IMG/VR virus record: IMGVR_UViG_3300044209_000010
Span: 1 to 36,272 of that record
Origin: a virus
Taxonomy: Duplodnaviria > Caudoviricetes
Strand: one strand, 5' to 3'
DNA: 36,272 nucleotides
Shown: piece by piece, positions 1,383 to 32,103 of the stretch
Numbering within the stretch: the first letter of the stretch is position 1
How the letters are laid out: each line of letters starts with the position of its first letter
Notes under the pieces: model-generated
The model's input: only the letters and a program-made list of their open reading frames with translations
Databases searched by the model: none
What the model was told of the DNA's origin: nothing
Translations under genes and position numbers: made by a program

Positions 1383-1487
1383 TTAGCTTGGCGCATACGC
1401 CAGCAGGAAGCCGTAGACCACCAGCGCGACAAGCGCCACCACGCCGAGGTACGCCAGCGCGGCGACGCCTTCGTTGCGGCGCTTCAT
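1383..1487 (-). CDS. Small single-TM protein (34 aa), holin/antiholin candidate
   Basis: MKRRNEGVAALAYLGVVALVALVVYGFLLAYAPS*; ATGA overlap with the upstream gene; below the ORF-track cutoff. Confidence 0.6.
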   Translation of the reverse strand: MKRRNEGVAALAYLGVVALVALVVYGFLLAYAPS

Positions 1488-3523
1488 TCGTTCGTCGCCA
1501 GCCCCTGCCCGATCAGGTTCGCAGTGCCGGCCGTCCCCGCACCCAGCAAGCCCATGCCCGCCCGCGCCCGCTGTTCAACCTGCGCCTGCCGCCGCTGAAG
1601 CTCGGCAAGCACTTGGGCTTGAACGGCACGATCCGATGTGAACAGCATTTGCGATAGCTGCTCCGTGGTCGCTTCATTCAATCCGCGCGTCCGGTTCATG
1701 GCCCGGTTGAACAGCCCAAGCGTCGCCCCCCCGGCCCCGCCGTTGACATAATCGACGGCGACGTTTGCCAGATTGCCCGCGTCCTCCTGCTCCGCATTGA
1801 TCCTGCTGGTCACGCTGTTGCCGGTCACCGCCTGCCGCGTCTGCGCCATGCGGATCTCTTCATTCATGCCCTTTTCGAAGGCGTCGAAACTCCCCTGGTC
1901 GGGGAATAGCGCCCGCAGTCGGGTCCGCTGGCCCTTGCTGCCGAAGATCCTCGGCACGGCGTTATGCGTGTCGCGGGTGTTCTCGACCTTGCCGGCCAGT
2001 TCGCGCGCCACGCCGAGGCGGAAAGCGTCCTGATCCCCCGGCGACAGGCGGCGGAACCTCTCAAGCGTCACTTCCGCATCGCCGCTGGCGTACTGCCGGC
2101 CCAGCCGTGCCGCTTCCATCGTCTGCGTTGGGCCGCCCCACGCCGCCCGCGCCTCTGCGTATTTCGGGTTGATGGCATCGACCGATTTGACGAACCGCGC
2201 GCGGGTCTGGTTGATCGCCTTGCCGCTTTCGTCCAGCACCAGCTTGCCGGTCGTCGTGTCGCGGAACTGCTCGACCACGTCATCCAGCCCGCGCTTGACG
2301 TAATCCAGCGTCTGCATGTTGGCTGCGGTCTTGTTGATCTTCACGTTGCCATCGGCGTCCAGATCAAGTCCCAGCCCGGTCGGGTCGCGCCCTTCCTCCG
2401 CCGCGATGCCGTGCGCCCGCTTCAGCGCGCTTCGCGTCGAGGGCCGGTCAAGCAGCGTTTCGATGGTGGCGTTCCAGACCAGCGGCTGGGCATACGCTTC
2501 GTCGTAGAGCGGTGCGGCTGTCGCCCGGCGGGTCCGGTCAAGATCGTCCAGCGTCTGGTGAAAATTGCCGGGGCTGAGGTGCGTGGTGATATCCTCGGTG
2601 ACCCGGTCAACCTGATCCGCCTGCCGCTCGTTGAGGAACTGCTTGGCCTGATTGCTGCCCTTGCCGGGGATCGTTTCCACCACCCGGCCCAAGCGCGTGG
2701 CGCTGTCCCCCGCGCTGTCCACGATGCCGTACGGCTTTGTGGTGCCGCTCAGCGTCGATTGCACGGCGCCCGGCGTCGTCTCGTCCCGCACCAGCGCCCG
2801 ATTGAGTTGATCAAGCGCCGTATTGCGAGGGTTGTTCAGACCGAACAGGTTTATGCCCTTGCCGACGATCTGGTTGCCGACAGCCCCGACCGCCGGCAGC
2901 GCGCCGCCGAACAGCCCGCCCAGCGCCGCGCCCTGTCCCGCCGAGGCTATGCGGTTCTCGAAGCCGCCCTCGCCCGCGCCGAAGCCGCCCAGCGCGCCGT
3001 AGCCGGCTCCCGTCGTCGCCGCCGTGCCGATGGCGCGCGGGATGCTTGGCGCCGCCACCACCGCTTTGGCCGCCGGCCCGCCCGTCGCCAGTCCGCCGAC
3101 GATGTTCGCCGTCGTGCTCGCTACCGGGTGTTCTTCCGCGAATTGCTTCTCCCGGCCCCGGATATCGGCCAGCGCCCGGTCATAGTTGCCGGAGAGATCC
3201 GCGTCCTTGCCCTGGATCAGGTTGGTTGCGCCGCGCGCCAGTGCCCGCCCGCCTGCGCCAAGCTCGTCAGCGAAGCCGAAAGTCAGCCCCTGCGTCGCCG
3301 CGTCCGCCGTCCCGCCGACGAAGTTGTTGATGCCGCCGAGCAAGCCGCGATCCGGCGGCGCATTGACGTTCAGCGGGTCCGGCGCCGTGAAGCCGATCTT
3401 GTCGTGAAACTCCGCCAGCGGCATGTCGGTATAGAATTTCTGATGCAGCGCGCCCGCCAGGTCCGCGTCGGACATGTCGTTGTACTGCGGGAATTTCTCC
3501 CGCACCTCGGCAATCGTCGTCAT
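1484..3523 (-). CDS. Internal virion / DNA ejection protein (679 aa)
   Basis: N-terminal EVREKFPQYNDMSD motif, Gly/Ala-rich TFGFADEL segment, long helical body; last gene of the ejection cluster. Confidence 0.7.
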   Translation of the reverse strand: MTTIAEVREKFPQYNDMSDADLAGALHQKFYTDMPLAEFHDKIGFTAPDPLNVNAPPDRGLLGGINNFVGGTADAATQGLTFGFADELGAGGRALARGATNLIQGKDADLSGNYDRALADIRGREKQFAEEHPVASTTANIVGGLATGGPAAKAVVAAPSIPRAIGTAATTGAGYGALGGFGAGEGGFENRIASAGQGAALGGLFGGALPAVGAVGNQIVGKGINLFGLNNPRNTALDQLNRALVRDETTPGAVQSTLSGTTKPYGIVDSAGDSATRLGRVVETIPGKGSNQAKQFLNERQADQVDRVTEDITTHLSPGNFHQTLDDLDRTRRATAAPLYDEAYAQPLVWNATIETLLDRPSTRSALKRAHGIAAEEGRDPTGLGLDLDADGNVKINKTAANMQTLDYVKRGLDDVVEQFRDTTTGKLVLDESGKAINQTRARFVKSVDAINPKYAEARAAWGGPTQTMEAARLGRQYASGDAEVTLERFRRLSPGDQDAFRLGVARELAGKVENTRDTHNAVPRIFGSKGQRTRLRALFPDQGSFDAFEKGMNEEIRMAQTRQAVTGNSVTSRINAEQEDAGNLANVAVDYVNGGAGGATLGLFNRAMNRTRGLNEATTEQLSQMLFTSDRAVQAQVLAELQRRQAQVEQRARAGMGLLGAGTAGTANLIGQGLATNE

Positions 3524-5340
3524 CGGCGGATGCCCAGCGGGTCAGGAGCGTCCCCGCCCGGCGGCTTCATCTCGAAGTCCGGCTTTGCCGGCCCGGCCGC
3601 CTTCACCATGTTGCGCACGGCCATTTCGCGGGCTTGGCGCTTCTGCTTCAGCACGGCCTCGCTGTCTCCCGGCTGCGGGAAATACTGCTTGTCCGCGTTC
3701 TCGAACTCGCTTTCACCGATGGCCGCGCCGCTCTCCCGACGAAGCTGAGCGTTGATGAACTCGCGCTTGGCCTGGTCATACTGCTGGTATTCATCGGACA
3801 TGGCGTAGTTGCCGAGCAGCGGCACGTTGCCGAGGTTCCGCTCCAGCGCACCGGGGCCTGTCCAGCCCTTCGCTTCAAGCTGGTCAAACGTGGAGTTGGC
3901 GGCGTTCAGGCGGTTGGCGAAGCCGGCGGCTAGTGACTGCTCGTTGTTCGGCGTCGGAGCGCCCTCGCGGAGTTGGGTCACGCGCGGGTTGGGCGGGGGC
4001 TGCGCTCCGGGAGGCTGTGCGGGAGGCGAGGTCACGGCAGGTCCGGGCGGCGGCGACTGGGGGGCCGGCGCCGGCTGCGGCATGCCCGGCAGCGGCTGCG
4101 GCGACACTTCGGCAAACCCGCCGTTCGCAGTCGGGACCACGCGCGGTTTCATCAAATGCCGTTCCGACAACTGCAGCAACATGGTTTCCTGCGGGTTCAG
4201 CGGCTGGCCGCTCACCTGCTTCTGCGACAGCGTCACATAAGTATTGTACATCTGCGCGTCGATGCCGGTCCCCTCCAGCGGCCCGCTCTGGTCCACGCCG
4301 CCCGGTGACTGGATGAACTGCTTCGTCTGCGTGTCGTAGACCTGCTTGCCGACCACCTTGTACCGATCCGCGTCGGACGTCGGCGCCAGCGCCTTCTTCG
4401 CGCTCGCGAACTTGTACAGGTTGTCGAATTCGCTGCCCAGCCGCTGCTGCCGCGCCTCTTCGCCCGCCATGGCACCACGGGTCAGGCCGCCGCCGAGCGC
4501 GCCGAGCAGTTCGCCGATGCCGACTTTCCGGTCCCGGACCCCCGCCAGCGGACTGACCGCGCCCAGCGCGCCCGCCATCATGTAGCCGCCCTGGCTCATC
4601 TGCGGCCGCTGTGTTTTCGGGTCCAGCAACTGCTGCATCACGCCGTTCAGCCTGTCGTTGATGCCGAGCCCAGCGCCAAGCTCGCTTGGCGCTCTGTCGG
4701 TCTGCGTCGTGCCCGGCAGTGCTGCCGGATCTGTGCGCGGCGGCTGGCTCGGCTCCTGCCCGACGTTGAGCAAGCCGCCCAGGCCCTCGTAAAAGTTGTT
4801 CTCGTCATCAACCTCAAGCAGCCCGGTCAGGGACTGGCCCGGCCGGGCCGCCCCGAACATCGGCCCCATGCCGGAAGTCTGCCCCGGCCTCGGCCGCGTC
4901 AACCCTGGTGCCACATCGCCCCCCTGTCCCTGATCGAAGATCCCAAGCGCGGCATTCACTTTCGGCAGGTACGCCGCCGTCTCGGCCGGCACCGTCGCGG
5001 TCCCGTTGCGCACCCGCATGGCCCGCCCCGGCCCCATGTTGTACGCCTGCGTCGCCTCGTCCCAGTTGCCGAACTGGTCGTACATCTCGCCGAGGTACGC
5101 GGTCCCGGCGAAGATGTTGTTCGTCGGGTCGAACCTGTCCGGCCCGAGGCCGTGGCGCTTGGCGAGGTCCTGGTACGTCGGGGCCATGACCTGCATGAGC
5201 CCGGCCGCGCCCTTCGGCGACACCGCGTCGGCCCGCCCGCCGCTCTCGACGCCCATCACGGCGCGGATGCGTTCTTCCGGCACCCCGAAGCGCCTCGACG
5301 CCGAGGATATGATCGGATCGTATCGATTGATCATCACCAT
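3520..5340 (-). CDS. Virion-associated lytic transglycosylase (SLT) / ejection protein
   Basis: VESGG..AVSPKGAAGLMQVM..AYNMGPG..ETAAYL SLT motifs at the N-terminus; Pro-rich linker. Confidence 0.85.
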   Translation of the reverse strand: MVMINRYDPIISSASRRFGVPEERIRAVMGVESGGRADAVSPKGAAGLMQVMAPTYQDLAKRHGLGPDRFDPTNNIFAGTAYLGEMYDQFGNWDEATQAYNMGPGRAMRVRNGTATVPAETAAYLPKVNAALGIFDQGQGGDVAPGLTRPRPGQTSGMGPMFGAARPGQSLTGLLEVDDENNFYEGLGGLLNVGQEPSQPPRTDPAALPGTTQTDRAPSELGAGLGINDRLNGVMQQLLDPKTQRPQMSQGGYMMAGALGAVSPLAGVRDRKVGIGELLGALGGGLTRGAMAGEEARQQRLGSEFDNLYKFASAKKALAPTSDADRYKVVGKQVYDTQTKQFIQSPGGVDQSGPLEGTGIDAQMYNTYVTLSQKQVSGQPLNPQETMLLQLSERHLMKPRVVPTANGGFAEVSPQPLPGMPQPAPAPQSPPPGPAVTSPPAQPPGAQPPPNPRVTQLREGAPTPNNEQSLAAGFANRLNAANSTFDQLEAKGWTGPGALERNLGNVPLLGNYAMSDEYQQYDQAKREFINAQLRRESGAAIGESEFENADKQYFPQPGDSEAVLKQKRQAREMAVRNMVKAAGPAKPDFEMKPPGGDAPDPLGIRR

Positions 5341-5669
5341 CAGATAACCCGCGCGGGGACTGTCGGCTTAAGCCGACAGAGGAAGCGCGGCCCCCTGTGA
5401 TTTGAGGTAAAATCATCGAACACGGCCGGATAGTCCTCTGAAGCTGAAATTGCTCTTGGGCGTTGATGCCGGTGCGGCTCTTGGGTCTTTGACATCGTGG
5501 AGTTCATGCGGTTGGACGGGATAGCCCCGTCCGTAAAACTCAATGCGACCAAGAGAGAAACACACGGGCTTTTGCCCAAGGGCCAGGAGCGGGCCTTGTA
5601 GCGCCAACGTGAGACAGTGGTCTGTGCGTTGCTACAGAAGCCGTCTCGTTTACGGGACGGATTGTTCAC
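5341..5669 (+). mobile_element. Non-autonomous IS200/IS605-family element (PATE/MITE-like, 329 bp), no tnpA or tnpB
   Basis: Left-end hairpin CTGTCGGC-TTAA-GCCGACAG (5360-5379) preceded by guide GGGA at +16..+19, with target CCAT at 5337-5340; right-end guide GAAG plus hairpin CCGTCTCG-TTTA-CGGGACGG (5641-5660), ending TCAC at 5669. Confidence 0.8.
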
Positions 5670-5689
5670 CCCAGCAACCCCCCGGTCCC
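5570..5689 (+). ncRNA. Putative TnpB-type omegaRNA (reRNA) scaffold plus flanking guide
   Basis: Nested stems TGTAGC(GC)CAACG..CGTTGCTACA and AGAC-AGTG-GTCT lead directly into the right-end hairpin, the layout of IS605/IS1341 right-end RNAs; the 5' boundary is approximate. Confidence 0.6.
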
Positions 5690-6757
5690 GGAGCGGCCGC
5701 GCCAGATGTAATCGTACAGCAGGTTCTGGGCCGGGTCCTTCCAGGCGGCGCGGTCGTCCCCCTGGCTCTGCCCGGCCAGCGGCACGATCTGCCCTGCCGG
5801 ATTGAGGGTGTACCCTGGGGGCGGCGCCTGGCCGACCGTCTCGGCCGCGGGCGGCCCGGACGCCTGCTGCAGCCTGGCGTCGATCTCGTTGAGGTTATGG
5901 CTCTGCTGCTGGCCGCCGCTGTTGTGGCCGCTCCGCGCCGCATCTTCGGCAGCGCTGGCGGCTTGCGTCGCGGGCGACGACGCCCGGCCCATCGCCGCAC
6001 CGATCCCCATCATGGCGCTCATCGGCTGCCCGGCCAGGAAGCCCGCCATGGTGCCCATGATGCCCGGCCCAACAGCGCTCGGCGCGCCGTAGCGGCCCGG
6101 AGCCTTGACGCTCGGCTTGAAATACTCCTGGACCAGCCGCGCCAGCGTGTCGCGCGGCGCGTACTGCTTCATGCTCATGCCCTCGGGCATGAAGCTCGGC
6201 GCCGCCAGCAGGCTCTCGACGGCGGGCATGGTCATGGGGTCATAGGCGCGATAGCCAAGTTGCCCGCTCCGGCCGCCGCCGCCGCCGTACCCGATGCTGT
6301 CCTCCCTGCCCCTCGGCCCCATGCTGGGATCATCGGTCCAGTTGCCGAAGCTGGTGTTGCCGCCAACGTCCATGCCACCATAGCTCTGCCCCGGCCCGGT
6401 GCCCTCGCTGCCGTTGCCTGGCCCGCCGACACCGTTGTCGCCGCCCTCGCCGCCGCCGCCGCCCGCCGTGCTGTACTCCAGCAGGCCGCTCAGCGGGTTG
6501 ACGGTGCCCGAGCCGCCGCGCGCCTTGAGCAGCGCCGCCTCGGCCGGGATCAGCCGCGTCACCCGGTCGTCGCCGCGCCGTCCGGCCTCGGCCAGCAGGC
6601 CGCGCGTGACCACCGCGCCGTGAGCCTCCGGCATCAGCTTGCCAAGCAGCCGGTCCTCACGCTCGTTGATGTGCGCGGGATCGCCAGCGTGTTTCAGCGT
6701 CGCGGCGTCCTCGGCATCGCGCCGCGTCGGCCGTGATTTCTTGAGCTTGCCCGTCAT
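5666..6757 (-). CDS. Putative internal virion protein (363 aa)
   Basis: GRRGDD..EAALLKARGGSGTVNPLSGLLEY motif, Gly-rich; lies in the ejection cluster; its stop codon comes from the IS right end. Confidence 0.7.
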   Translation of the reverse strand: MTGKLKKSRPTRRDAEDAATLKHAGDPAHINEREDRLLGKLMPEAHGAVVTRGLLAEAGRRGDDRVTRLIPAEAALLKARGGSGTVNPLSGLLEYSTAGGGGGEGGDNGVGGPGNGSEGTGPGQSYGGMDVGGNTSFGNWTDDPSMGPRGREDSIGYGGGGGRSGQLGYRAYDPMTMPAVESLLAAPSFMPEGMSMKQYAPRDTLARLVQEYFKPSVKAPGRYGAPSAVGPGIMGTMAGFLAGQPMSAMMGIGAAMGRASSPATQAASAAEDAARSGHNSGGQQQSHNLNEIDARLQQASGPPAAETVGQAPPPGYTLNPAGQIVPLAGQSQGDDRAAWKDPAQNLLYDYIWRGRSGTGGLLG

Positions 6758-9390
6758 CAGCCGAAGATCCCGTTCTCATAGAAGCCGAGCGAGGACCCGC
6801 CGCCGCCGCCGAACAGGCCGGAGATCGCATCGTACCCGGCCTTCGCGCCGCTGATGAGCTGCGGCGCGTTGTAGAGCGCCGAGCCGATGCCCAGCCCGCC
6901 CGCGAGCACGTTCGCCATGGTGTTGCTCGACGCCCCCGGCGCTATCTGCTGGGTGCCGCTGCTGTAGCCGTTCAGCCCCTGCTGCAGGATGCCGAGCTGC
7001 GTCAGCGGGTAGTTCTGCCCCGCCGCCCACTGATTGTACTCGTTGGTCAGCGCCGCCTGCCCCTGCGCCTGGTGCGCGGCCCCCGCGCCCGACAGCGCGT
7101 TGGCGTAGCCCAGTTGCTGCTGCTGCTGATCCATGCCCATGCCGCTCAGGGCGTTGGCCGCCGACAGCCGCGTGTTGGCGGCGTTCTGGGCGGCCGACTG
7201 GTTCGCCAGCCCGGCGCGCAGGTTCAGATCGGAATTGAACTGACCGGCCTCGTTAACCGCCGCCGCCTGCCCCGCCGAGGCGGTGTTGTGGGCCGCCGCC
7301 GTCTGCTCGTTGGCGCGCTGCTGGTTGGTCGCGTTGTACTGCAGCATCTGGTTGGCGGCGTCGGCCTGCGCCCGGCTCTGGGCGTTCTGCTGCAGGCTGT
7401 TCTGCAAATTGGCGGCTTGACTCAGGCCGGCGTTGTACTGCGCCATTTCGTTCGCCATCGCGGCCTGGCTTTGCGACGCCGCGTTGTGCGCCTGCGCCGT
7501 CTGACTGTTGGCCGTCTGCTGAAGCTGCGCCTGCAGCGCCGAGCGGTCGTTCGTCGCGGCCATGTTCTGCAAGCCGGTCTGCTGCTGGTAGCCGCTGGTG
7601 ACCTGGTTGGCCTGCTGCTGCAGATTGGCCTGGAGATCCTGGCGGTCGTTCAGGGCCGACATGTTGTTGGCGGCCGCCTGCTGCTGCAATCCCGCGTTGT
7701 ACTGGCTCTGGGAATTGGTCTGGCCGGTGTTGTAGATCGATGCCTGATTTTGGGCGGCGCTGTTCGCGAGGTTGACGTTTTGCTGCTGGCTGGCGTTGAA
7801 ATCGGCCCGCGCATTGGCTGCGGCTTGGTTCGCGGCACTCGCGTTTTGCTGGAAACCGGCGTTCGTGCTGGCGGCGTTTTGGGCGAGATTGCTGTTCTGG
7901 AGGTTGGCGGCCTGCAACAGCCCGGCGTTGTACTGGTTCTGGCTATTGATCGCGGCTTGGTTGTTGGCCCCCGCCTGCTGCGCATAGCCGCTGTTGGTCT
8001 GCGCGGCCTGTTGCCGCAAGCCGGTGTCGTAGGCCGCCCGCTCGTTGATGGCCGCCATGTTCGCGGCGTTGGCGGCCTGCCCGTAGCCGCTCGACACGCG
8101 GTTGGCCTCCTGCGCCAACTGCGCCTGCAGGTCGCCACGGGAATTGGCCGCCCCGGCGTTCCATTGCGACGCGGTCTGCTGCTGGCCCGCGTTGAACTGG
8201 CTCTGGGCATTGCCCGCCAGCATGTTCTGCAAACCGGCCTGCTGGGCGTTCGAGGTGTTCAGGTTTCCGACATTCCAATCCTGGCCCTGGTTCGCGAGCT
8301 GTGCGTTGAGCGCACGCTGCTGGTCGGTCTGGATCGCGGCCTGCGCCTGGGCGAAGTTCGTGTTGTTCAACCCGGCGATGGTCTGCGCCGCCGTGTCGAG
8401 ATAGGCCCGGTTGTTCTCGGCATTGGCAACCGCCTGTCGCGAACCGCCGAACGCCCCGGCCTTCGCAGCCGCCGCGTTGGTCTGCTGGTTCAGCAGATCA
8501 TTCCTGCGGCCAAGCTGCTGCATGCTCGCATCGATGACGGACGAGGTGTACGGGTTGAGATACGACTGCAGGTTGGCTTCGGTGAAATTCTGGCTCGCGA
8601 CGTTGCGGATATCGCCGCGCGCCAGTTGGGCGGCGTTCATCTGGCCTGCGGGTCCCGCCAGCGAAGCCTGCATCTGGGCGGCCGGCCCGGCGTTCGCCAT
8701 AGCCATCTGCGCCGCCGCCATCTGGCTCGCGGGACCAGCCTGCTGCGCCTGCATCGAAGCCGCGTTCATCTGCGCGGCAGGACCTGCGCTCGCGGCGGCC
8801 ATCCTGGCGGCCTGCATCTGCGCCGGGGTCATGGTCGCGGCGTTGCCGGCCAGGGCGGCCTGCGCGGCGTAGCTCTGAGCCTGCGCCGCGTTCCCGGCGG
8901 AGGCTGCGTTCATGGTCGAGGCGGGTCCGGCGTTGGCGGCCTGCATCGCCGCCGCCTGAGCCTGCGCCGCCGCCCCGGCGTTGGCGGCACTCGTGTTGGT
9001 CACCGACTGGAGGTGCGCCGGTCCGGCGTTCGCGGCGTTGGCCCCGTAAAACGCGGGCAGATGCCCCGCCCCGGCCGAGGCGGCCTGAGTGTTGGTGACC
9101 GCCTGCAGCGCGGGCGTGTAGCCTCCCGGCTGCACCTGCTGCCCCTGGAACGCGGCGGCTCCCTGCGCCGCCTGCTGGCCAGCATCCATCGCCGCGCCGC
9201 CGATGTTGTTCGTCGCCGCGTTCACCGCCGTGTTGTAGCCCTGCGCCTGCGCCGGGTCCCAGCCCGCCAGCATGTTGCCTTGATACTGCTGATATGGCTT
9301 GTTGGCGATCTGCTGGGCGAGCCCGAAGTTGGACTGCGCGGCGTTGGCGGCCCAGCCCGTCGGGGTGGTCGTCGTGGTCGTTAGTGCCAT
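6757..9390 (-). CDS. Repeat-rich DNA pilot/ejection-type virion protein (877 aa)
   Basis: A/Q/N-rich; central YLNPY..AGAFGGSR motif; 5/6-aa and 11-aa repeat arrays; Gly-rich hydrophobic C-terminus. Confidence 0.75.
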   Translation of the reverse strand: MALTTTTTTPTGWAANAAQSNFGLAQQIANKPYQQYQGNMLAGWDPAQAQGYNTAVNAATNNIGGAAMDAGQQAAQGAAAFQGQQVQPGGYTPALQAVTNTQAASAGAGHLPAFYGANAANAGPAHLQSVTNTSAANAGAAAQAQAAAMQAANAGPASTMNAASAGNAAQAQSYAAQAALAGNAATMTPAQMQAARMAAASAGPAAQMNAASMQAQQAGPASQMAAAQMAMANAGPAAQMQASLAGPAGQMNAAQLARGDIRNVASQNFTEANLQSYLNPYTSSVIDASMQQLGRRNDLLNQQTNAAAAKAGAFGGSRQAVANAENNRAYLDTAAQTIAGLNNTNFAQAQAAIQTDQQRALNAQLANQGQDWNVGNLNTSNAQQAGLQNMLAGNAQSQFNAGQQQTASQWNAGAANSRGDLQAQLAQEANRVSSGYGQAANAANMAAINERAAYDTGLRQQAAQTNSGYAQQAGANNQAAINSQNQYNAGLLQAANLQNSNLAQNAASTNAGFQQNASAANQAAANARADFNASQQQNVNLANSAAQNQASIYNTGQTNSQSQYNAGLQQQAAANNMSALNDRQDLQANLQQQANQVTSGYQQQTGLQNMAATNDRSALQAQLQQTANSQTAQAHNAASQSQAAMANEMAQYNAGLSQAANLQNSLQQNAQSRAQADAANQMLQYNATNQQRANEQTAAAHNTASAGQAAAVNEAGQFNSDLNLRAGLANQSAAQNAANTRLSAANALSGMGMDQQQQQLGYANALSGAGAAHQAQGQAALTNEYNQWAAGQNYPLTQLGILQQGLNGYSSGTQQIAPGASSNTMANVLAGGLGIGSALYNAPQLISGAKAGYDAISGLFGGGGGSSLGFYENGIFG

Positions 9391-9393
9391 GGC

Positions 9394-10908
9394 TTATCTC
9401 CGCGAACCGGTTTGCGTCATGTCCAACCGGACCGCGCCAAGTCTCCAAAATGACGGCGCGCTGGCGCTGTCGATACGGATCGCCATCTGCCGCGCCGTCG
9501 CGCGAAGGTCCACGCGCTCGGTCGTCGGCAGCACCGTATACGGCCCGTGCTCCGTCTCCGCCCCGGCCGGCCACTGGCGGCCCTTGAGCGTGATGGTCAA
9601 GCCGCCGGCCATGTCTTCCACGTCCGGGACGATCCGCGTCACCGCCATGAGCGCGTCGCCGTCGCCGATATCCGATGGCGCGCTTTCCAGATGCGCGACG
9701 ATGGCGCCGCCGTCCGCTGACGACAGCCGCTCATGGAAGTACAGGTAGCCATCCGTGTCCGTCGCCAGCGGGTGCTGCCACACCCCGGCGTCTACCCAGG
9801 CGGTTCTATCCCAGGTGCCAATCGACCAATGGTTCTCGGCGTAATTGTATATGACGTAGCGCGAGCACTCGTTGCCGTCGCGCTGATCGGGATAGAACCA
9901 CCACACTTCGCTATTGGCCGAATTGCCGCCCGCATAAACCTTGTCGCTCTGCACCCAGGACAGGTTATCCATGACGTACCGCTTCACCGGGCAGGGAATG
10001 ATCTGCGGCGCGCCGCCGGAGTATACGAAAAACTCGCCGCTGGAGCTTAGCCAGTAGGCCGCGCCGTTGACTTCCACCGCCGCGTTCGGCCCGATCAGGC
10101 CGCACCCCTGCCCCAGCAGCTCGGCGCCGTAGACCAGCAGCGGGTCGCCCAGGTAGGTCAGGCTATACAAACTGGTATCGGTCCAAACCAAATTGGTCTT
10201 GCGGCTCGCCATGCCGCGCACGATGCGGCCGCCTTGGCTCAGGATCAGATCGCCCGACTGGTTGGTGGCGCTTGGTGTCCAGTTGGTGTTGTCCTCCTGA
10301 TCGCTCCAGCGCAACATCATCGGGTTGTAGGTCGATCCGCCGAACTCGGTTGCCCCGCCGCACATCACGATCCTCTCGGCGGTCACCCACATGCAGCCGA
10401 TCTCATCCGGCGCTGATGTGATCTCGGCCGCTGGCGTGCCGGTGTTCCCCGTCCACTCGTACAGGGTGCCACTCCTCGGGCTCGCCAGCAGATACTCGCC
10501 CCAGTTGGCGAGGCTCCAGGTGCGCGGGAAATAGTCCCCGGTTGACGGCGTGCCATAGGTGCCGGTGCCATAAGTGCCGGTGCCGTAGCCCAGGCCGCCG
10601 GTACCGTCCTCGTTGCCCGCCGCCAGTCCAGCGGGCGTGATGTCATACAACCCGCCGCCATAAAACACCCACAACGCCTCGTGCGTCCCGATGCCGACGC
10701 GCGGCGCCCCGTCGTTGCCCGCCCAAGCGTGCAGCCCCCGGCAGATCCCGCTGAACTGCTGCGTGCTGGCCCGCTCCCAGCCGCCGATGGTCTGCGCCTG
10801 CCCCTGGCGGAACCGGACCTTGTCGGCATCCACGAAGCCGCCCTCGGCCGCCAGCGGGGCGTCGTCTTTGACCACGCCCGGCCGGAATGTCACTTTGGTC
10901 AGCGTCAC
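9394..10908 (-). CDS. Tail stabilisation/nozzle-like (beta-propeller) protein
   Basis: GTG at 10908 overlaps the tail-fibre stop; MLRWSDQED..W and EVWWFYP motifs; position between the fibre and ejection genes. Confidence 0.7.
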   Translation of the reverse strand: MTLTKVTFRPGVVKDDAPLAAEGGFVDADKVRFRQGQAQTIGGWERASTQQFSGICRGLHAWAGNDGAPRVGIGTHEALWVFYGGGLYDITPAGLAAGNEDGTGGLGYGTGTYGTGTYGTPSTGDYFPRTWSLANWGEYLLASPRSGTLYEWTGNTGTPAAEITSAPDEIGCMWVTAERIVMCGGATEFGGSTYNPMMLRWSDQEDNTNWTPSATNQSGDLILSQGGRIVRGMASRKTNLVWTDTSLYSLTYLGDPLLVYGAELLGQGCGLIGPNAAVEVNGAAYWLSSSGEFFVYSGGAPQIIPCPVKRYVMDNLSWVQSDKVYAGGNSANSEVWWFYPDQRDGNECSRYVIYNYAENHWSIGTWDRTAWVDAGVWQHPLATDTDGYLYFHERLSSADGGAIVAHLESAPSDIGDGDALMAVTRIVPDVEDMAGGLTITLKGRQWPAGAETEHGPYTVLPTTERVDLRATARQMAIRIDSASAPSFWRLGAVRLDMTQTGSRR

Positions 10909-12527
10909 GACGTGTAATCCACCCAGGCCATGCCGCGCCATTTGGTGCCGCCGTCGTCGGTGAGAAATTTGAAGAGGTGCACCTTGCTGGTGTTCAGCGT
11001 CGGCGTCGTGGCTGCCGGCCATGTCACCGATGCGGGCCATGTGATGGCCCCGGATGTGTGGATCACCTTCAGGGTGAACTCGAAGAACCCCGTCGTCGGC
11101 GGGCTGCTGAAGACGAAGCTCGACGCCCCGTTGATCGTCCGCGTGAAATACTGCCCCAGCGTCAGGTCGAGCGTGCTGGTCGCCGCCGCCACCACATCCG
11201 CGACCGTGCGCCCGGCAACCCGCGTCGTCCCGGCCAGGACCGGCGAGCTGTTCGCCAGGTCCGTTTCCCCCGCCCAGGCCGTGAAGCCGGACGGCGGCGC
11301 GTAACTGAATTCCTGCCTCGCCAGCCGGAGCGTGAAGGTCTGCGACGATGTCGAGCCGACAGCCGGAAAAACGGTGCCGCTCACGTCGGTCATGCCCGCA
11401 TTGGTGCCCGCCGCCGGATCGCCGCTGGCGAACCAGGAGCCGTTGCGCGCCGCCCAGAACTTGCCGGTGTCCAAGTCCACCGCGACGCCGAAGACATCGC
11501 CCGCCGCCGGCGTGAACGCGCCCACGGTCGTTACCGCCGTGCCGCTGGCGTGGTAATAGCCATCGGTCGCGGCGTTCGCCAAACTCCAGCCGGCGGCTAT
11601 CGCCCCGATATTCGAGCTGGCGGTTGAGATGGAATAGGCCGAGGTGACCACGCCGAAGGACATCAGCGAAGTCCCGGCATCGACCCTCACCTCGAAGTAG
11701 TATTTGCCCGATGCCCGGCCGATCCCGCTCCGCGCCGCCCGCGAAACGGCCCCCCCGGTCGCCATGGCCCGACCCTGGTTGCTGAGCGTCACGGCGGTCG
11801 CGTCGTAGCTCTCGAAGCCCCGGTTGAGCCCCTGGACCGCGCTTTGCCCGGACGACAGGGCGGCGGAGGTCGCGGCCTCCGCCGCCGAAGCCGCCGAAGC
11901 CGTGGCCGAAGCCGCCGCCGCCGTGGCGCTGGAGGCTGCGCTTGTGGCGCTGCCGGCCGCCGCCAAGGCGCTGGCGGCCGCCCCCGTCGCGTCAACCGCG
12001 CTCGCCGCCGCGTCCACGTAGGTCTTGGTCGTCGCGTCGGTGCCAAGGGTCGGAGTGCCCAGGCCGGTGATCTTCTGGCCGTTCAGGTCCAGCGCCGCTG
12101 TCGGAGCCGGGGTCTGGTCCAGCCGAGGCGTCGCGCGGTACACGTCCGTCGCATCGCAATAGACCCACTGCGGCCCGCCGCGCAGCGCGTAGCCGCTCCC
12201 GGCCGCCGTCTTGATCGTCAGGCTGTACGCGCCCTGCGTCGCGTTGTTGACGACGAGGTACAGCTTCTCGACGTTCGGCACCGTGATGGTGCTGTTCGCC
12301 GACAGGGTGCCGGTCAGCACCAGCGCCGCCTTTCTGGCCTGATCGGTCGCATAGTTCGTGGATGTGAGGGTTGTCGCCGTGCCGCTGATCGTGATGGCCT
12401 GGACGCCCGCGATAGCCTCGTCCAGCCGCTCCAGCGCGTCGTTCAGCCTGTTCGAGCCCCAGGTGTTCAAATTCTCGCCGAGTGATTGCAATTCTACCCG
12501 TAGACGTGTACTAGGAGTTGAAACCAT
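10905..12527 (-). CDS. Tail fibre protein with SPRY/ConA-like domain
   Basis: N-terminal GEN.NTWG anchor, DATTKTYVD, Ala/Ser stalk, GKYYFEV..GDVFGVAVDLDTGKFW SPRY-like pattern, C-terminal beta-sandwich. Confidence 0.8.
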   Translation of the reverse strand: MVSTPSTRLRVELQSLGENLNTWGSNRLNDALERLDEAIAGVQAITISGTATTLTSTNYATDQARKAALVLTGTLSANSTITVPNVEKLYLVVNNATQGAYSLTIKTAAGSGYALRGGPQWVYCDATDVYRATPRLDQTPAPTAALDLNGQKITGLGTPTLGTDATTKTYVDAAASAVDATGAAASALAAAGSATSAASSATAAAASATASAASAAEAATSAALSSGQSAVQGLNRGFESYDATAVTLSNQGRAMATGGAVSRAARSGIGRASGKYYFEVRVDAGTSLMSFGVVTSAYSISTASSNIGAIAAGWSLANAATDGYYHASGTAVTTVGAFTPAAGDVFGVAVDLDTGKFWAARNGSWFASGDPAAGTNAGMTDVSGTVFPAVGSTSSQTFTLRLARQEFSYAPPSGFTAWAGETDLANSSPVLAGTTRVAGRTVADVVAAATSTLDLTLGQYFTRTINGASSFVFSSPPTTGFFEFTLKVIHTSGAITWPASVTWPAATTPTLNTSKVHLFKFLTDDGGTKWRGMAWVDYTS

Positions 12528-13345
12528 TACCTGTTCTCCGAGCGAATTCTTGCGACAACATCGGCGTATTTCTTGCCGGAACGGATGTTGTGAATGAGCG
12601 TGTAGGACTTCCCGAACTCGTCAGCGATATCTTGGGTTATGCGCGTGTCGGCCAGGATCGCCCGGATATCGTCTTCGGTCAGCGTGCGGTTGGCAATGTT
12701 CCGGGCGGAAATGTGCGGCAGATGCTTGCCACGCTTCTTCTCCCCCGTCCGCCGCGCCAGTTCCGGATCGCGCCGCATATGGTGGAGATCACCCCGCTTG
12801 TGAGGTTTTGGGCCAGTCCGGAACTTCAGGTTCCGCTCGACAACTTCGGGCGGCAGCGTGGCGCAGACATTGTCGTACAAGTCCTTGTAGATCTTCCCGC
12901 GCGCGATTGAACTCACAGCGCCTTTGCTCAAGCCATACTGCGCGCAAATCTCTTTCGCCTGCCTCGTGTCCAGCAGGATCGCCCGAATGTCGTCTTCCGT
13001 CAGTTTCCGGTTGGCTCGGTTCCGCGCCGTCGTCCATGTGGACGTGATGCCCATCAGCCCGCCGCCGCCCGCCGTCTGGTTGTAGCCGCGCCAGCCGAAC
13101 GTGCCGTGCTCCGCGATCAGCCGGACTTCGGCAGTGTTCAGCGCTGCCAGATCATCGTGCTGCTCCAGCACTTCGGCTGTGAATACATCCAGCCCGCGAT
13201 TGCGCATTGAGACATGAAGCGGTGCCGCCGAGGCGGTATTCATCGCTTCATGAACATGGTCCGCGACACGATGCTTAAGTGATCGCGTTGAAATGCCGAT
13301 GTAACTGCGACCGGTGACTGTGTTGGTGATTTTGTAGACGATCAT
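12527..13345 (-). CDS. Free-standing GIY-YIG homing endonuclease with two HTH-like repeats
   Basis: MIVYKITNTVTGRSYIG..R..E..GYNQTAGG; duplicated NR(K/T)LTEDDIRAIL.DTR modules; TAATG overlap with the tail-fibre gene. Confidence 0.85.
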   Translation of the reverse strand: MIVYKITNTVTGRSYIGISTRSLKHRVADHVHEAMNTASAAPLHVSMRNRGLDVFTAEVLEQHDDLAALNTAEVRLIAEHGTFGWRGYNQTAGGGGLMGITSTWTTARNRANRKLTEDDIRAILLDTRQAKEICAQYGLSKGAVSSIARGKIYKDLYDNVCATLPPEVVERNLKFRTGPKPHKRGDLHHMRRDPELARRTGEKKRGKHLPHISARNIANRTLTEDDIRAILADTRITQDIADEFGKSYTLIHNIRSGKKYADVVARIRSENR

Positions 13346-13473
13346 GGTGGCCTTGGCGTCACCGAGGATCGTCACGCGCGGCTTGATGGTTTTCATGCCG
13401 AATTTTAGCATTCCGGCATGGTAGGCCGTTACGGAACTATCGCCCCAGACATTGACATTTGCGGATACCACGT

Positions 13474-13725
13474 TCAATCCACCACCGTCGAGTTGGGTCT
13501 TCTCCACGAAACCCCGTCGCTATAAGCCGGCACCGCGCCGCCCGTGGCATCGCTCACGAAAATCCAGCCGCCGACCCAAGCCGCCGGGTCCGGCAGATCG
13601 GCGACGACGAAGGAGGCGAGCACCACGGGGAAGCCGCGCGCCCGCGTCGCGGCCAGTTCGCGGGCCACATCGTCGGCGAACCGCTGCGCCCAGGGGGGCG
13701 CGTCCCGGCTGATCGTGATCGCCAT
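13474..13725 (-). CDS. Small virion/tail-associated protein (83 aa)
   Basis: TGATG coupling; IFVSDATGGAVPAYSDGVSWRR beta motif. Confidence 0.7.
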   Translation of the reverse strand: MAITISRDAPPWAQRFADDVARELAATRARGFPVVLASFVVADLPDPAAWVGGWIFVSDATGGAVPAYSDGVSWRRPNSTVVD

Positions 13726-16291: not shown

Positions 16292-16519
16292 CTACGAGAG
16301 GTCAGCCACAATTCCATGGGCTCTCTCATTGAGTACCTTCAAAGTCCATTCACATTTGACCATTCTCTTTTCGGAGTGCCCAGTTTTCGCCAAAGGCTCC
16401 TGGGCCATCTTTTGGAGGTACGCAATCTCGATCTTGTCAGGAGTAACTACAAGGGCGTCGCGTGCCCGCATAAGGCGGGACGGGACGATCTGAACCTCAC
16501 CGAAGTCGCCTACGTAGAT
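16292..16519 (-). CDS. Major capsid protein, exon 2 (75 aa)
   Basis: IYVGDFGEVQIVPSR..LAKTG..EWTLKVLNERAHG is an MCP C-terminus; joins exon 1 in frame to give 318 aa. Confidence 0.9.
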   Translation of the reverse strand: MYVGDFGEVQIVPSRLMRARDALVVTPDKIEIAYLQKMAQEPLAKTGHSEKRMVKCEWTLKVLNERAHGIVADLS

Positions 16520-17282
16520 CACGTCTGTTACCCCTCCCGACCGAAGAGGATGAACTGCGTCAGCTTGCGCATCGGCTGGTCGAGAGTGGGCAGGTCGTTT
16601 CTAGTTCCGCCTGCCTCCAGCGGTTTCCCGCTGGGTCGGACCATATCTTCATCCGAAATCACGTTCGGAGCCCGGCATATGGCCTCTGAGGATTTCGCTG
16701 TCGCTTTGGTGCGGATCGAGCTTATCAACTCGATTTCAGCACGGGTGTACCCGGCCCGCATAACCCGCCCCAGCGCATCGCGCCGCAGATAATTCCGCTT
16801 CCTGCTTTCCAGATACTGCAACACCACGTCCGCCGCCGCTGCCTTCTGTGTCGAACGCAGATACGGGCGAATGGTCGGCAGGAAAGCCATCATCGGCTTT
16901 TCGCCATCCATCCGCAGGTTGGTGCAGTTCTTGTTGATGCCGCCGCTGACGCCGCAAGGCCGCCACACAGCACCCATTTCAGTCAGGATACGCTTGCATT
17001 CCGACAGTATTCCTTCATCGGAATTCACAATGCATGCATACGGAGTTAAGCGAACGCAACCGTCTGGTTTGGTGTAGACCTGGACGCTGATAGTACCTTC
17101 CCCATCAACGATCCCGCCCAACCAAGACAACGATCTTTCCTGCTGATTGCCCATTGTTCCATCTCCACGGATTGTCACCATAATCAGGGTAGCATTATCC
17201 CTGACTACGGTACCGGGAGCTTTAGGGGTTTCCAGCATATAGCCGAGTTTCACGTCAACATTACCACTTATGCGGCGAGTTT
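16520..17282 (-). mobile_element. Group I intron (763 nt) in the major capsid gene
   Basis: Exon 1 ends in U and the intron ends in G; P1 CGUCGAU/GUUGACG; P AUGCUGGAAA 17238-17229, Q AAUCAGCAGG 17148-17139, R UCAGAGGCCAUA 16689-16678, S AAGAUAUGGUCC 16649-16638; P3 CUCGGC/GCCGGG; P9 with a GAAA loop. Confidence 0.92.
16528..17154 (-). CDS. Intron-encoded single-motif LAGLIDADG homing endonuclease (208 aa)
   Basis: LSWLGGIVDGEGTISV motif; FLPTIRPYL; GGAGA RBS before ATG at 17154. Confidence 0.88.
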   Translation of the reverse strand: MGNQQERSLSWLGGIVDGEGTISVQVYTKPDGCVRLTPYACIVNSDEGILSECKRILTEMGAVWRPCGVSGGINKNCTNLRMDGEKPMMAFLPTIRPYLRSTQKAAAADVVLQYLESRKRNYLRRDALGRVMRAGYTRAEIELISSIRTKATAKSSEAICRAPNVISDEDMVRPSGKPLEAGGTRNDLPTLDQPMRKLTQFILFGREG

Positions 17283-18011
17283 ATCGACGGCGGCCACAAT
17301 CTTCCTGCTATCCATTTCACGGAACGTGGTCGCATTTCCGGTGAAGGCGCTGATGAGCTGCTTATTGGCAGACCCCACGAAGACGAGCGACGGATCGCCG
17401 CCGTTGGTCCAGGCCAGGGCCAGCACGGTCTTGAGCAGGGCTTCGGTCAGGGCGCGCTGCGTCCCGTCCACCGCCGCCGTCGTCGGGTAGCCGCTGGTGG
17501 TGCCCGACAGCACCGGGTTCACGCCCGACGTGCCGCGCGACACGTTGGTCTGGAGGAACGACGCGAAGCTGGCGGAGGTGCGGGCGGTCGAGGCGCTGCC
17601 CGCCGACGCGACCTTGTTGCTCAGCAGGGTTTTCTCGATGTCGCGCTTCAGCTCCTGCGTCTTCAGGGCAAGCTGCTTGCTCATGCGGTTCAGGTCGCCG
17701 CTCTCGTCCACCACTTCGCGCGTGCTGGAGACTTGTGCGACCTTATCGCTGATTTGGGTATAGTTCGACAGCCGGACGCCTTCGGTCATGGCGTCGGCGG
17801 TGACATCGTTGCCCTCGATTTCCGCATTTGTGTCGCTCGCGCTAGCGAGGTCCACGGTGACCCACTCGGGATGCGTGGAAACCGTAGTGCCCTTGCGGAT
17901 CGCGGTCAGGAACGGCGTCTCGGTCGGGGCGATGAGTTCGGCGATCTTCGACAGATCTTCGGCGATCACAGACGACTGGTACGTCTGTGCGGTATTGGCG
18001 GGTACAGCCAT
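17283..18011 (-). CDS. Major capsid protein, exon 1 (243 aa; DUF5309-like)
   Basis: EDLS..IAPTETPF..NYTQI..ELKRDIE motifs; follows the scaffold gene; unspliced reading stops 4 codons into the intron. Confidence 0.9.
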
Positions 18012-19346: not shown

Positions 19347-21419
19347 TTACTGGATCTGCTGTGGCGGTTGCATCTGCTGCTGGGCCAGTTGGCCCTGCTG
19401 GCGGATCGCTTCACGGTCACGCTCGACGGCGGCTCGGATCTGCGCGATGTTGACCTGCGCCCCGTACTTGGCCTGAAGCTCGGCGGCCTTCAGCGAGATG
19501 TCAGCGTCGAGCTTGTCGCGCTCGCGGTCATCGGCGCGGATCATCTTCTCACGCTCCAGCGCCAGCTTGCCCTGCTCGACCTGCGCCTGAACCTGGATCA
19601 TCATGATGTTCGGGTCGGGCTGCTGCTGCTGGGGCTGCTGCTGCGGCGGCTGCTGGCTGGGATCGCGGAAGTACTGGTCAACGTTCTTCAGCCCGGCGAT
19701 TTTCACGAGCTGGGCCAGCGTATGGTAATACTCCTGCGGCGACACTAGACCGCCGTACCCGCCGTTCTGAATGATGCCTTCTTGTGTGGCCTGGATCTGC
19801 GCCAGAATGCCGAGCTGCTCGGTTTTATTGCCGGTCCCGAGCCCCACTTCCGTCGTCAGGTCCATGTTGCTGTTCCACGAGCGCGGGTCCATTTCAACCC
19901 ACTGGTTCCGCAGCCGGACGACGCGGGATTTCTGCTGGTAGCGGGTGACCAGTTGGAGGATCAGCGAAAACGCGCGCTTGATGCCGGTTTCGGCGAAGAC
20001 GCGGCAGATCAACTCGACACGCTGCTGAGCGGCGGACTGGAGCGCCGCAACGCCCGTGGCAGTCTGCGCCGCCGCCGCCCCGCCTTTCAGCACGTCCGCG
20101 TCGATGCCTTGGGACAGCTTTGAAACGCCGCTTCGCCCCTCAAGTACCCGGTCAACATACTCAAGCATCGGGAAGGCGGCTTGGCCGACAAATTGGCTGT
20201 TTAGTTCGCCAACCATGCCGGGAGCCTTGACGCGGACAACACCGCCCGCCTCGCTGTTGAGGAGTTCTTGCAGATTGACTTGCCCGTCAACCGCCCATGT
20301 GCGCGGCTTGTTCGCCAGATAGAGCGAATTCAGCATCTGCCGAGTAATCGACGTTTTTATCTCCTGCAGATCCTTAACCAGATCGGCAATCGACAGCCCG
20401 TTGAGACGGTGCGGCATGAGGATCGGGCTCAGCACCGCGAACGGTGGCCCGTCCACCTCTTCGACGTTGAGCACCTTGCTGTCATTGACGCCGCCGAGCG
20501 TCACCTTGACCCACTCGGTCCGGCCGTCGCCGTTGATGTCGAGCTTGGTATACCACTCGGTAACCTCGATCAGCCTGGACGCGCGGTCGCGGCTGTCGCG
20601 GTTGGCGTCCTCCAGCGCACTGGGCTGGAGCCGATGGCTGCGCTCGCCCCACTCGTCATCCTCGTCAGCGGTCGGCAGATCGTCCACCAGCCCCGCATCA
20701 TAGCCGGCTTCGATCAGGTCGCTCTGCGTAACGCGCCGCCGATGGCCCTGCCCCGGATCGGCATCGCTCTTGACGGTCGGGAGGAACAGGTACTCTTCCG
20801 GCGGCACGGGCTCGACGCACACGCGGCCGTCCGGCTCGGCGTAGGTCAGGCGGACATCGTAGAGCACTGTCGGCTGACCATCAGGCCCAAGCGGCCCCTC
20901 GACCTGCTCCGCCGCCGTGATATCGGCGTTCTGGTCCTGCGTCAGCAATGCTAGCTGCATCTCGGACAGCCCGCCCATGTCCAGCGTCCGGTACCTGGTC
21001 TCGTCCTCCCACCAGATCTTGACCACGCCCAATCCACCGATCAGGGCATCCTTTATCCAGGTGTGAAGGATTAAAAACCCTGGGTTGTCTCTATTGAATA
21101 TGAAATTCACGAAATCGGTAGCTTGCTCCGCCAGTTGTTCGTCTTCCGCCCCTTGAGGCTCAAACCGAACAATCTCGTCAGTAGAAGCAAAGACTTTGAT
21201 GATCTGGGGGAGAAGCCACTCTGTCGCCTCAAGAACTTCTCTGGTGACAACAGAAGATTGCCCAGGCTTGCTGGCCCACCTGTTTTTTCCAAGATAGTAG
21301 TCAAGCGCGTCTTGCCTTGCCGAAGAAAGCGTCCCAACATGACTTTCAGCGGCAGCAATTTCTTTCCCGCAAATAGCTTTGATATCATCATCGCTTAGGG
21401 GCTTGGGGCTAGTCGGCAT
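19347..21419 (-). CDS. Portal protein (P22-like, with C-terminal Gln-rich barrel)
   Basis: About 690 aa; WIKDALIGGLGVVK.WW, VPPEEY and PFAVLSPILMPHR.G motifs; probable ATG at 21419. Confidence 0.88.
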   Translation of the reverse strand: MPTSPKPLSDDDIKAICGKEIAAAESHVGTLSSARQDALDYYLGKNRWASKPGQSSVVTREVLEATEWLLPQIIKVFASTDEIVRFEPQGAEDEQLAEQATDFVNFIFNRDNPGFLILHTWIKDALIGGLGVVKIWWEDETRYRTLDMGGLSEMQLALLTQDQNADITAAEQVEGPLGPDGQPTVLYDVRLTYAEPDGRVCVEPVPPEEYLFLPTVKSDADPGQGHRRRVTQSDLIEAGYDAGLVDDLPTADEDDEWGERSHRLQPSALEDANRDSRDRASRLIEVTEWYTKLDINGDGRTEWVKVTLGGVNDSKVLNVEEVDGPPFAVLSPILMPHRLNGLSIADLVKDLQEIKTSITRQMLNSLYLANKPRTWAVDGQVNLQELLNSEAGGVVRVKAPGMVGELNSQFVGQAAFPMLEYVDRVLEGRSGVSKLSQGIDADVLKGGAAAAQTATGVAALQSAAQQRVELICRVFAETGIKRAFSLILQLVTRYQQKSRVVRLRNQWVEMDPRSWNSNMDLTTEVGLGTGNKTEQLGILAQIQATQEGIIQNGGYGGLVSPQEYYHTLAQLVKIAGLKNVDQYFRDPSQQPPQQQPQQQQPDPNIMMIQVQAQVEQGKLALEREKMIRADDRERDKLDADISLKAAELQAKYGAQVNIAQIRAAVERDREAIRQQGQLAQQQMQPPQQIQ

Positions 21420-22269: not shown

Positions 22270-22382
22270 GGCCGGTGCCTCCGAGGATTGATATCCCCGA
22301 AGAATACCGATGCATTCTGATATCTCGCCATTGCGCAGGAGAACCGCAGCCGGCACTCCGGCATAACCCGCCGGCGCCAGCA

Positions 22383-30995: not shown

Positions 30996-31171
30996 GCCGG
31001 CCACCGTTCGGTGCCATCCAGGTTGCGGCCGATGTAGTCTTGCGCGGCGTCCTCAAGCTCGGCCAGCGCCGCCGAGCAGCCTTGGTCGAAGACCCAAACA
31101 ACGGCGGCCAGGATAAGCCGTTCGCGCGCGGACAGAGCCGGCGCGGCCTCAGTCTGTACAGGAGCAGTCAA
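30992..31171 (-). CDS. Hypothetical protein (59 aa)
   Basis: GGAGG RBS before TTG at 31171; start uncertain. Confidence 0.45.
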   Translation of the reverse strand: MTAPVQTEAAPALSARERLILAAVVWVFDQGCSAALAELEDAAQDYIGRNLDGTERWPA

Positions 31172-32030: not shown

Positions 32031-32049
32031 GGTTAACGCCTGTGGGTTG

Positions 32050-32093
32050 AAAAAAGGCTGCTCGGGTAACGGTGTGCTGAACCCCGAGCAGCC
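32050..32093 (-). terminator. Rho-independent terminator after recT
   Basis: 11-bp stem GGCTGCTCGGG/CCCGAGCAGCC followed by T6. Confidence 0.75.
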
Positions 32094-32103
32094 AGGAGGG
32101 AGG

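Follow-up and report, generated by a model that had tools for sequence, protein, structure and literature searches.

The window analysed here, a stretch of 36,272 nucleotides (nt) that makes up IMG/VR record IMGVR_UViG_3300044209_000010 (Duplodnaviria; Caudoviricetes), encodes on its minus strand at 6757..9390 a protein of 877 amino acids (aa) with two distant repeat arrays that match unit by unit in antiparallel order. The N-terminal arm (N-arm) holds 31 units of five or six residues, the C-terminal arm (C-arm) holds 31 repeats of eleven residues (hendecads), and across homologues the two arms change in length together. Each array unit is very probably paired physically with its hendecad. The preferred reading, given a probability of roughly 0.7, is that of an ejection-channel extension: a first-ejected channel protein would fold back on itself, with its strand units lying on the hendecad helix, and would lengthen the DNA-delivery tube by about 50 nm.

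Mirrored arrays in the window protein and its homologues

In the open reading frame (ORF) 6757-9390 (-), the codon of residue 90 begins at 9123 and that of residue 718 closes at 7237. The N-arm array (residues 90-255; 8626..9123, minus strand) consists of 20 five-mers and 11 six-mers, is composed of 40% Ala and contains one charged residue. It was parsed using AG[PNA][AG] anchors only, a rule derived from the description in an earlier, sequence-only reading. Ten anchors were found, the gaps between them are exact multiples of five in 9/9 cases, and 31 units result; the six-mer count includes the leftover GYTPAL, giving the run pattern 1,1,2,2,3,2,1,2,2,2,2. The C-arm array (residues 378-718; 7237..8259, minus strand) parses into exactly 31x11 residues without interruption. 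Position 6 is N or Q in 31/31 hendecads, and both residues together account for 36% of the array (123/341).

This rule-based parse reproduced the antiparallel opposition of 31 short units and 31 hendecads that the sequence-only reading had described, together with most of the code attached to it. All 16 canonical five-mers face Q at hendecad position 6 (16/16), while the six-mers (11/11) and the four five-mers named as atypical face N at this position. The only His residues in 378-718, H635 and H701, stand opposite QSVTN and QAVTN. The "atypical" class was defined post hoc in this protein; it held out of sample in relatives (see below). An aromatic residue or Leu (F/W/Y/L) at hendecad position 11 is found opposite 11/11 six-mers and 2/20 five-mers. 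The claim that hendecads of the form NxxAxN..(F/Y/L) are spaced exactly like the six-mers stands as an overall pattern with two departures: hendecad 16 (NSAAQNQASIY) has this form although a five-mer stands opposite, and hendecad 17 is without Ala at position 4. Antiparallel agreement without shift amounts to 0.94 at position 11 and 0.87 at position 6, compared with 0.75 and 0.78 for the best parallel and 0.79 and 0.75 for the best shifted antiparallel arrangement. Block shuffles, taking the best over shifts and both orientations, gave p = 0.002 and 0.014 for positions 11 and 6. The match in the single protein is thus significant, not overwhelming, and it is the homologues that carry the case. 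As Tandem Repeats Finder listed nothing within the gene and other array lengths occur on independent contigs, the arrays are not a DNA-repeat artefact.

The homologue set comprises 515 distinct sequences, 484 of which contain both central anchors, and 223 of these also pass both outer-anchor thresholds; the core profile matches 5,742 representatives at 50% clustering. Among the 223 homologues the N-arm and C-arm lengths correlate with r 0.984, with slopes of 2.009 for 155 plain proteins and 2.046 for 68 proteins bearing an extra inner module. The slope remains 2.00 (r 0.985) in 222 phylogenetic contrasts, so that the predicted co-variation at about 5.3:11 is borne out. C-arm length equals 67+11k in 210/223 homologues. 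Sister pairs differ in length in 31/65 cases, and 28 of those 31 change in a ratio of 1.57-2.33. The length of the leader does not track that of the N-arm (rho -0.01).

A parser confined to the N-arm gave equal numbers of units and hendecads in 25/26 close relatives, the single miss being a mis-placed anchor. Using stricter anchors, the numbers agree in 30/30, with 12 of the 30 sharing the same 5-unit length; the longest arrays reach 40 units (L002) and 37 units (L004). Examined out of sample on 222 unique unit pairs from outside the window, the code places Asn-6 opposite 75/80 six-mers and 27/30 atypical five-mers, Gln-6 opposite 100/112 canonical five-mers, and His-5 opposite 20/20 xxVxN units vs 4/202 others. 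A parser-free self-similarity test gave a mirrored signal exceeding the parallel one in 24/25 long proteins, including 14/15 outside the close clade; 23 of the 25 reach p<0.05 under a lenient permutation null. Distant lineages use different motif alphabets and obey the identical pairing rule, from which it appears likely that array expansion arose several times.

How the register is kept can be judged from the window and its relative L001, whose cores are 96% identical. Their difference of eight units is made up by one indel of 129 nt in the N-arm and, in the C-arm, by two of 66 and 198 nt. That these eight units differ through unlike indels on either side argues for separate events under selection, and the register is likely kept by selection acting on indels that arise independently in each arm. 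Off-register intermediates would then be short-lived, or tolerated by looping out of the strand. A single nested-cassette event was considered as register keeper and is not supported by these indels. DNA similarity within unit classes is mirrored in 3/6 proteins (window, p 0.04; L002, p 0.001; L004, p 0.02), which fits co-duplication in some lineages, but also amino-acid constraint; in L002 and L004, duplicates that look recent form mirrored blocks on either arm.

The view that there is no physical pairing, and that the match stems from flexible parsing or linked DNA duplication, can draw on the low-complexity A/Q/N sequence and on single-protein p values of just 0.002-0.014. It is contradicted by the parser-free length fits and self-similarity, by the coupling ladders described below, by the different indels in each arm of the window and L001, and by several unrelated motif alphabets following the same rule, and is judged extremely improbable.

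Antiparallel couplings and proposed mechanism

The arrays are framed by further segments. At the centre lies a conserved hairpin (residues 256-377; 8260..8625, minus strand) with an NPY motif, a helix at 281-310, an AFGGSR turn and a second helix starting at 317; the NP-to-AFGG spacing is 34 in 479/484 homologues. Leader and outer helices (residues 1-89; 9124..9390, minus strand) precede the N-arm array, and the helix at 65-79 couples antiparallel to 734-755 within the continuation of the C-terminal helix (residues 719-806; 6973..7236, minus strand), the part held in common with SU10 gp22 and LUZ24 gp53 according to hhalign. The protein ends in a Gly-rich, on the Kyte-Doolittle scale mildly hydrophobic tail (residues 807-877; 6757..6972, minus strand), a candidate membrane anchor. 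Family members differ in their C-terminal additions, which comprise an S74 chaperone domain (e.g. P0014, P0021, P0111), a Cys-led tail of ~70 aa (L004:5137-8250) and a longer Cys-led domain (P0009 type); these are possibly processing signals, and NCBIfam gave no match for them.

Direct couplings, computed at the centre from 479 sequences, form an antiparallel ladder. It begins with helix-helix couplings at the tip (305-323, 295-328, 293-337, 282-345) and continues outward (277-356, 272-357, 264-363, 256-375). At the outer end, couplings from 211 sequences resume the ladder (91-715/719, 86-730, 81-734, 78-738, 75-745, 64-755). The array ends are thereby pinned on both sides in the antiparallel register that the parse had given. 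Inside a unit, co-variation links the first residue to the far end of the hendecad and the last residue to its near end. AlphaFold2 (AF2) models the C-arm of the window protein as helix at 317-507 and 559-806, with a helix-turn-helix formed by 281-310 and 317 onward, and in the two proteins modelled the N-arm is mostly without regular structure. By standard geometry, 341 helical residues cover 51 nm, and 166 N-arm residues over the same span would come to 3.1 A each. A ceiling of the length ratio near 2.2 would correspond to the limit of a fully stretched chain. Couplings and models thus agree with an antiparallel fold-back around a central tip, as in the class of T7 gp14 and P22 gp7, but the residue ratio of 1:2 and the non-helical N-arm in AF2 depart from the two helical arms of that class; helix-helix pairing is confined to the tip and the outer end of the hairpin. 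L102 and L104 carry an insert of ~70 aa in the N-arm that has no C-arm counterpart, which suggests that the strand faces outward. This small domain sits in the N-arm of L102:5539-6942, L104, P0221 and P0226, and when 22 selected homologues were scanned against Pfam, neither the core nor the insert of L102 matched a family. The helical wheel of the C-arm did not tell a lumen side from an outer side.

In the mechanism proposed, each 5-/6-residue unit would lie as extended strand along one 11-residue helical repeat, most of one helix in the hairpin stem of a gp14/gp7-like protein being replaced by strand. The NPY/AFGGSR hairpin would serve as docking tip on the tail hub, as the fingertip of P22 gp7 does. 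In an assembly of 6-12 copies, the C-arms may form a helical barrel with the N-arms running in its outside grooves, held by Asn/Gln at hendecad position 6: Gln would underlie taut five-mers (3.3 A per residue), and the Gly-Pro-kinked six-mers would sit on Asn together with an aromatic residue. The two termini would come together at the distal end, and there the Gly-rich tail would enter the outer membrane. A unit pair would add ~1.65 nm, which translates into a span between the same anchors of ~10 nm with no array, 65 nm in the window and 79 nm in L002, that is, about 10 to 79 nm within the family. This variation would likely serve to bridge thick surface layers. Judged by eye, phiM5 gp27 (L178:7001-8407) seems to have been lengthened in the outer helix-helix stem and not where strand lies on helix, which would give the hairpin another route to extension.

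The pairing might instead represent a storage or assembly state, the N-arm acting as a tape within the molecule that holds the long helix in solution inside the capsid or steers it on its way out, without forming channel wall. On their way from capsid to cell, ejection proteins undergo extensive refolding, as portions of PMC8954989 and PMC11784390 state, and the N-arm is almost uncharged and of low complexity. Against this, a single antiparallel ladder connects the tip with the outer helix pair, which is the post-ejection geometry of P22 gp7 and T7 gp14, and a rigid 65-nm hairpin would hardly fit into a small podophage head. Such a state is therefore regarded as quite unlikely.

Kinship, gene context and probable role

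The assignment to the ejection proteins derives from family membership and gene order. Short homologues align with PHROG 4287 over almost their whole length (E values as low as 3e-28), and phrog_4287 is hit by 10/20 (E<=0.01) and 5/5 homologues. The same PHROG is matched by SU10 gp21 (E 1e-117), SU10 gp22 (4e-109), phiM5 gp27 and LUZ24 gp53; in SU10 (L183:21904-23937), gp21 and gp22 are two adjacent paralogues. SU10 gp20-24 are virion components that are gone after genome release, as reported in a section of PMC9509320, and phiM5 gp27 is annotated as part of the particle proteome. The 877-aa gene lies after the tail hub gene and before the genes of large internal proteins, the cluster position characteristic of PHROG 4287. 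These matches and the gene order support the role in ejection that the sequence-only reading had proposed, and the protein most likely works as a first-ejected channel protein of the gp14/gp7 type. Homology to P22 gp7 itself did not emerge, and the homologues scanned have no phrog_598 match; ESM leads point weakly to Pfam P22_gp7 (0.87). Structural searches gave little: PDB sequence searches using three profiles yielded nothing beyond two poly-Q matches, Foldseek found no PDB match at E<=0.001 (gp14 E 8.4), and BFVD returned uncharacterised phage proteins only. Fold comparison to T7 gp14 reached Z 8.8 for 7ey7_A (root-mean-square deviation 4.6, 99 aligned) and Z 8.3 for 8e4g_a, level with unrelated helical hairpins, and the best VIA hit, at Z 9.2, stood among generic helices.

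Two further readings accept the pairing and differ in function. A closed trimer, i.e. a needle, plug or fibre with a class I-like leash in its groove, might pierce or sense the envelope without conducting DNA. The location directly after the hub gene is the needle-gene slot of P22, SU10 and LUZ24, no gene in the window was recognised as a needle gene, and the phiM5 and phiOH homologues are deposited as "tailspike" and "tail fiber". These labels, however, rest on the S74 domain; similarity to P22 gp26 is 0.2% (hhalign), PHROG 4287 holds SU10 gp21/gp22, which are distinct from the SU10 needle gp18, and the hendecads have no continuous hydrophobic core stripe. In addition, many relatives carry a small gene and a 120-aa phrog_22172 gene between the hub gene and the homologous gene, the position that gene 14 has ahead of gene 7 in P22. 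The trimer, which of all alternatives deserves most attention, is nevertheless unlikely. Slightly less credit is given to a tube that spans the periplasm or the whole envelope, in a gp15/gp20-like role, and does not extend the tail outside the cell. The calculated ~50 nm is as long as the entire trans-envelope channel of P22, as far as the excerpted text of 10.64898/2026.09.03.749273 goes, and the two SU10 paralogues imply that roles can split. First place in the cluster, the relationship to LUZ24 gp53 (presumed counterpart of Pa223 gp56, for which an outer-membrane channel is proposed) and separate SLT-bearing and 679-aa genes downstream argue against it, and the near-continuous variation of 10-79 nm among close relatives would suit the thickness of surface layers better than the width of the periplasm.

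Several points weigh against an ejection-channel extension or against the analysis behind it. The window protein itself matches nothing in Pfam, PHROG and NCBIfam. With the family profile, hhalign gave 93.5% for SU10 gp22 and 92.1% for LUZ24 gp53, matches that cover just 91 and 49 C-terminal columns, the Q-rich helix; SU10 gp21 scored 12% and P22 gp7, as a single sequence, 0.2%. The S74 chaperone domain, typical of trimers and thereby also favouring the closed trimer, occurs in 24/220 homologues, and Pfam did not find it in the window protein. The hydrophobicity of the tail is weak (Kyte-Doolittle 19-residue maximum 1.13 at 828), and 59/132 homologue tails reach 1.0. An outer-anchor threshold was failed by 261/484 homologues, which were left out of the main fit; relaxed thresholds give rho 0.96 for 272 proteins, and in 45/74 of those failing the N anchor alone the expected motif lies <=8 residues from the position predicted by the C-arm, vs 30% by chance. 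More than one hendecad (11 residues) off their line are 15/223 homologues, some from five-mer-only lineages (ratio 2.2), some probably mis-grouped and a few unexplained (P0055, P0018, P0155, P0163). The rules of the unit parser were written after the paired output had been seen, for which reason the parser-free test was added. Couplings were measured at the array flanks only and do not distinguish contacts within a chain from those between chains. AF2 models have a predicted TM score of 0.28 and 0.32, with the predicted local distance difference test mostly <50 in the N-arm, and do not confirm packing inside the arrays; the window model breaks the C-helix at 508-558, with low confidence there, and places three short helices in the N-arm. 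Tail-fibre length bears no clear relation to arm length (rho 0.48, p 0.19, n 9).

According to Pfam and PHROG scans, the window contains an SU10-type portal, capsid and adaptor as well as terminase, DnaB, RecT and antirepressors, which indicates a short-tailed, probably temperate phage. The nearest homologue of the 877-aa protein in a named genome belongs to an Azospirillum soli prophage (59% core identity). All genes of the putative ejection cluster lie on the minus strand. Directly upstream of the 877-aa gene is the tail hub/nozzle gene (9394..11040; phrog_3287), whose real start is probably ~45 codons in; the L001 copy, 92% identical to the window hub, matches PDB 9nwi_Y (513 aa, E 1e-16), which by its length would be the Pa223 hub gp59. 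Downstream follow a 363-aa gene (5666..6757), next in the operon by the ORF list and kept in close relatives, a 606-aa protein with an N-terminal lytic transglycosylase domain (SLT; 3520..5340; PF01464, E 4e-26; phrog_342, internal virion protein), by these matches a likely ejection protein, and a 679-aa protein (1484..3523; phrog_5880), last in the putative cluster, the gene order being conserved in relatives.

The 120-aa phrog_22172 gene (with weak likeness to acetyltransferases) that precedes the homologous gene in many relatives is missing at window 9390-9394 (locus compared: L004:4763-5137). Instead, an 83-aa gene resembling the small post-hub gene in style sits upstream of the fibre gene in the window. 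Short repeats with a ~60-nt period in translated frames, possibly a mini-array, occur between the hub and the next gene at L004:4461-4742. The major capsid gene seems to be split (window 16298-18011, minus strand), as LUZ24 capsid residues 1-223 align to 18011-17328 and 240-313 to 16519-16298; with an HNH-like ORF (16528-17253) between the two parts, the arrangement resembles an intron with homing endonuclease, but an Rfam scan of the window, including this suspected intron, gave no match at gathering score. Two more homing-endonuclease ORFs (GIY-YIG, NUMOD3) are located in the structural module at 12527-13507 and 21409-22395 (minus strand), one ahead of the fibre gene and the other between the terminase and portal genes, and a PAPS-reductase-domain gene lies in the early region (31149-32204, minus strand).

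Taken more broadly, the data tip the balance slightly towards a widespread, undescribed class of podophage ejection channels with a self-encoded ruler, a strand-on-helix zipper with a readable unit code that several lineages would have expanded separately, from 0 up to 40 unit pairs, to yield tail extensions of 10-80 nm from one gene. If true, this would be the podophage counterpart of the tape-measure principle, with ruler and tube being the same chain. First-ejected channel proteins have been regarded as small and constant in size, whereas in this family the length between the same anchors would vary in quantised steps, by up to ~eightfold, making it a direct test case for the way in which phages with short tails get past thick surface layers to the outer membrane. 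The family is also a clean natural example in which two distant repeat arrays have to grow in register and the unit-level pairing code can be read from the sequence, usable for the study of compensatory indel evolution and for the design of long strand-on-helix rods. The labels of cultured members, tailspike or fibre, would be wrong.

Comparison with known systems

A full-text literature search, with subscription literature including the phiM5 paper outside its reach, turned up no ejection protein described as having mirrored arrays that expand together, and PDB sequence searches found no solved structure for the window subfamily. The known PHROG 4287 proteins (SU10 gp21/gp22, phiM5 gp27, LUZ24 gp53) share with the window protein an AFGGSR-like central turn, a C-terminal Q-rich helix and a Gly-rich tail, as well as the gene slot past the hub gene and ahead of SLT-bearing proteins, but differ in their length of 313-468 aa and have no mirrored arrays. 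For Pa223 gp56 (313 aa), an outer-membrane channel has been proposed and a hollow nonamer predicted (excerpts of 10.1101/2025.06.11.659172); LUZ24 gp53, also of 313 aa, is presumably its counterpart.

P22 gp7 forms a fold-back hairpin with its central fingertip wedged into the hub and its arms directed to the outer membrane (in the available part of 10.64898/2026.09.03.749273), and T7 gp14 is likewise a two-helix hairpin (PMC11784390, in part). In P22 gp7*/T7 gp14 both arms are helical, whereas one arm of the window family would be extended. Proteins of the gp14 type measure 181-240 aa and vary by <30% in size, according to a passage of PMC8954989; the window family reaches 877-1038 aa.

The phiX174 H pilot tube, which the sequence-only reading had invoked, contains Gln/Asn-rich hendecads in a DNA-conducting helical barrel, and the pertinent portion of PMC7354561 describes three hendecads plus heptads and no return strand. 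Gln/Asn-rich hendecads are thus common to both, but there is no PDB sequence match and the window has the portal/terminase context of a tailed phage, so the link holds as analogy only; SU10 gp21/gp22 and the Bruynoghevirus outer-membrane channel protein are nearer kin. In class I viral fusion hairpins, as Duquerroy reportedly noted in 2005, an extended chain is held antiparallel in coiled-coil grooves by Asn/Gln zippers. These hairpins differ in being trimeric, heptad-based, short and unrelated, and are not known to show mirrored repeat expansion. The closest structural precedent is the "molecular tape" of T7 gp16, where an extended segment (157-228) cements the helices of the gp15 DNA tunnel (PMC8954989, relevant extract). 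This tape involves two proteins, is fixed in length and non-repetitive, in contrast to the single, repetitive and unit-coded chain of the window protein.

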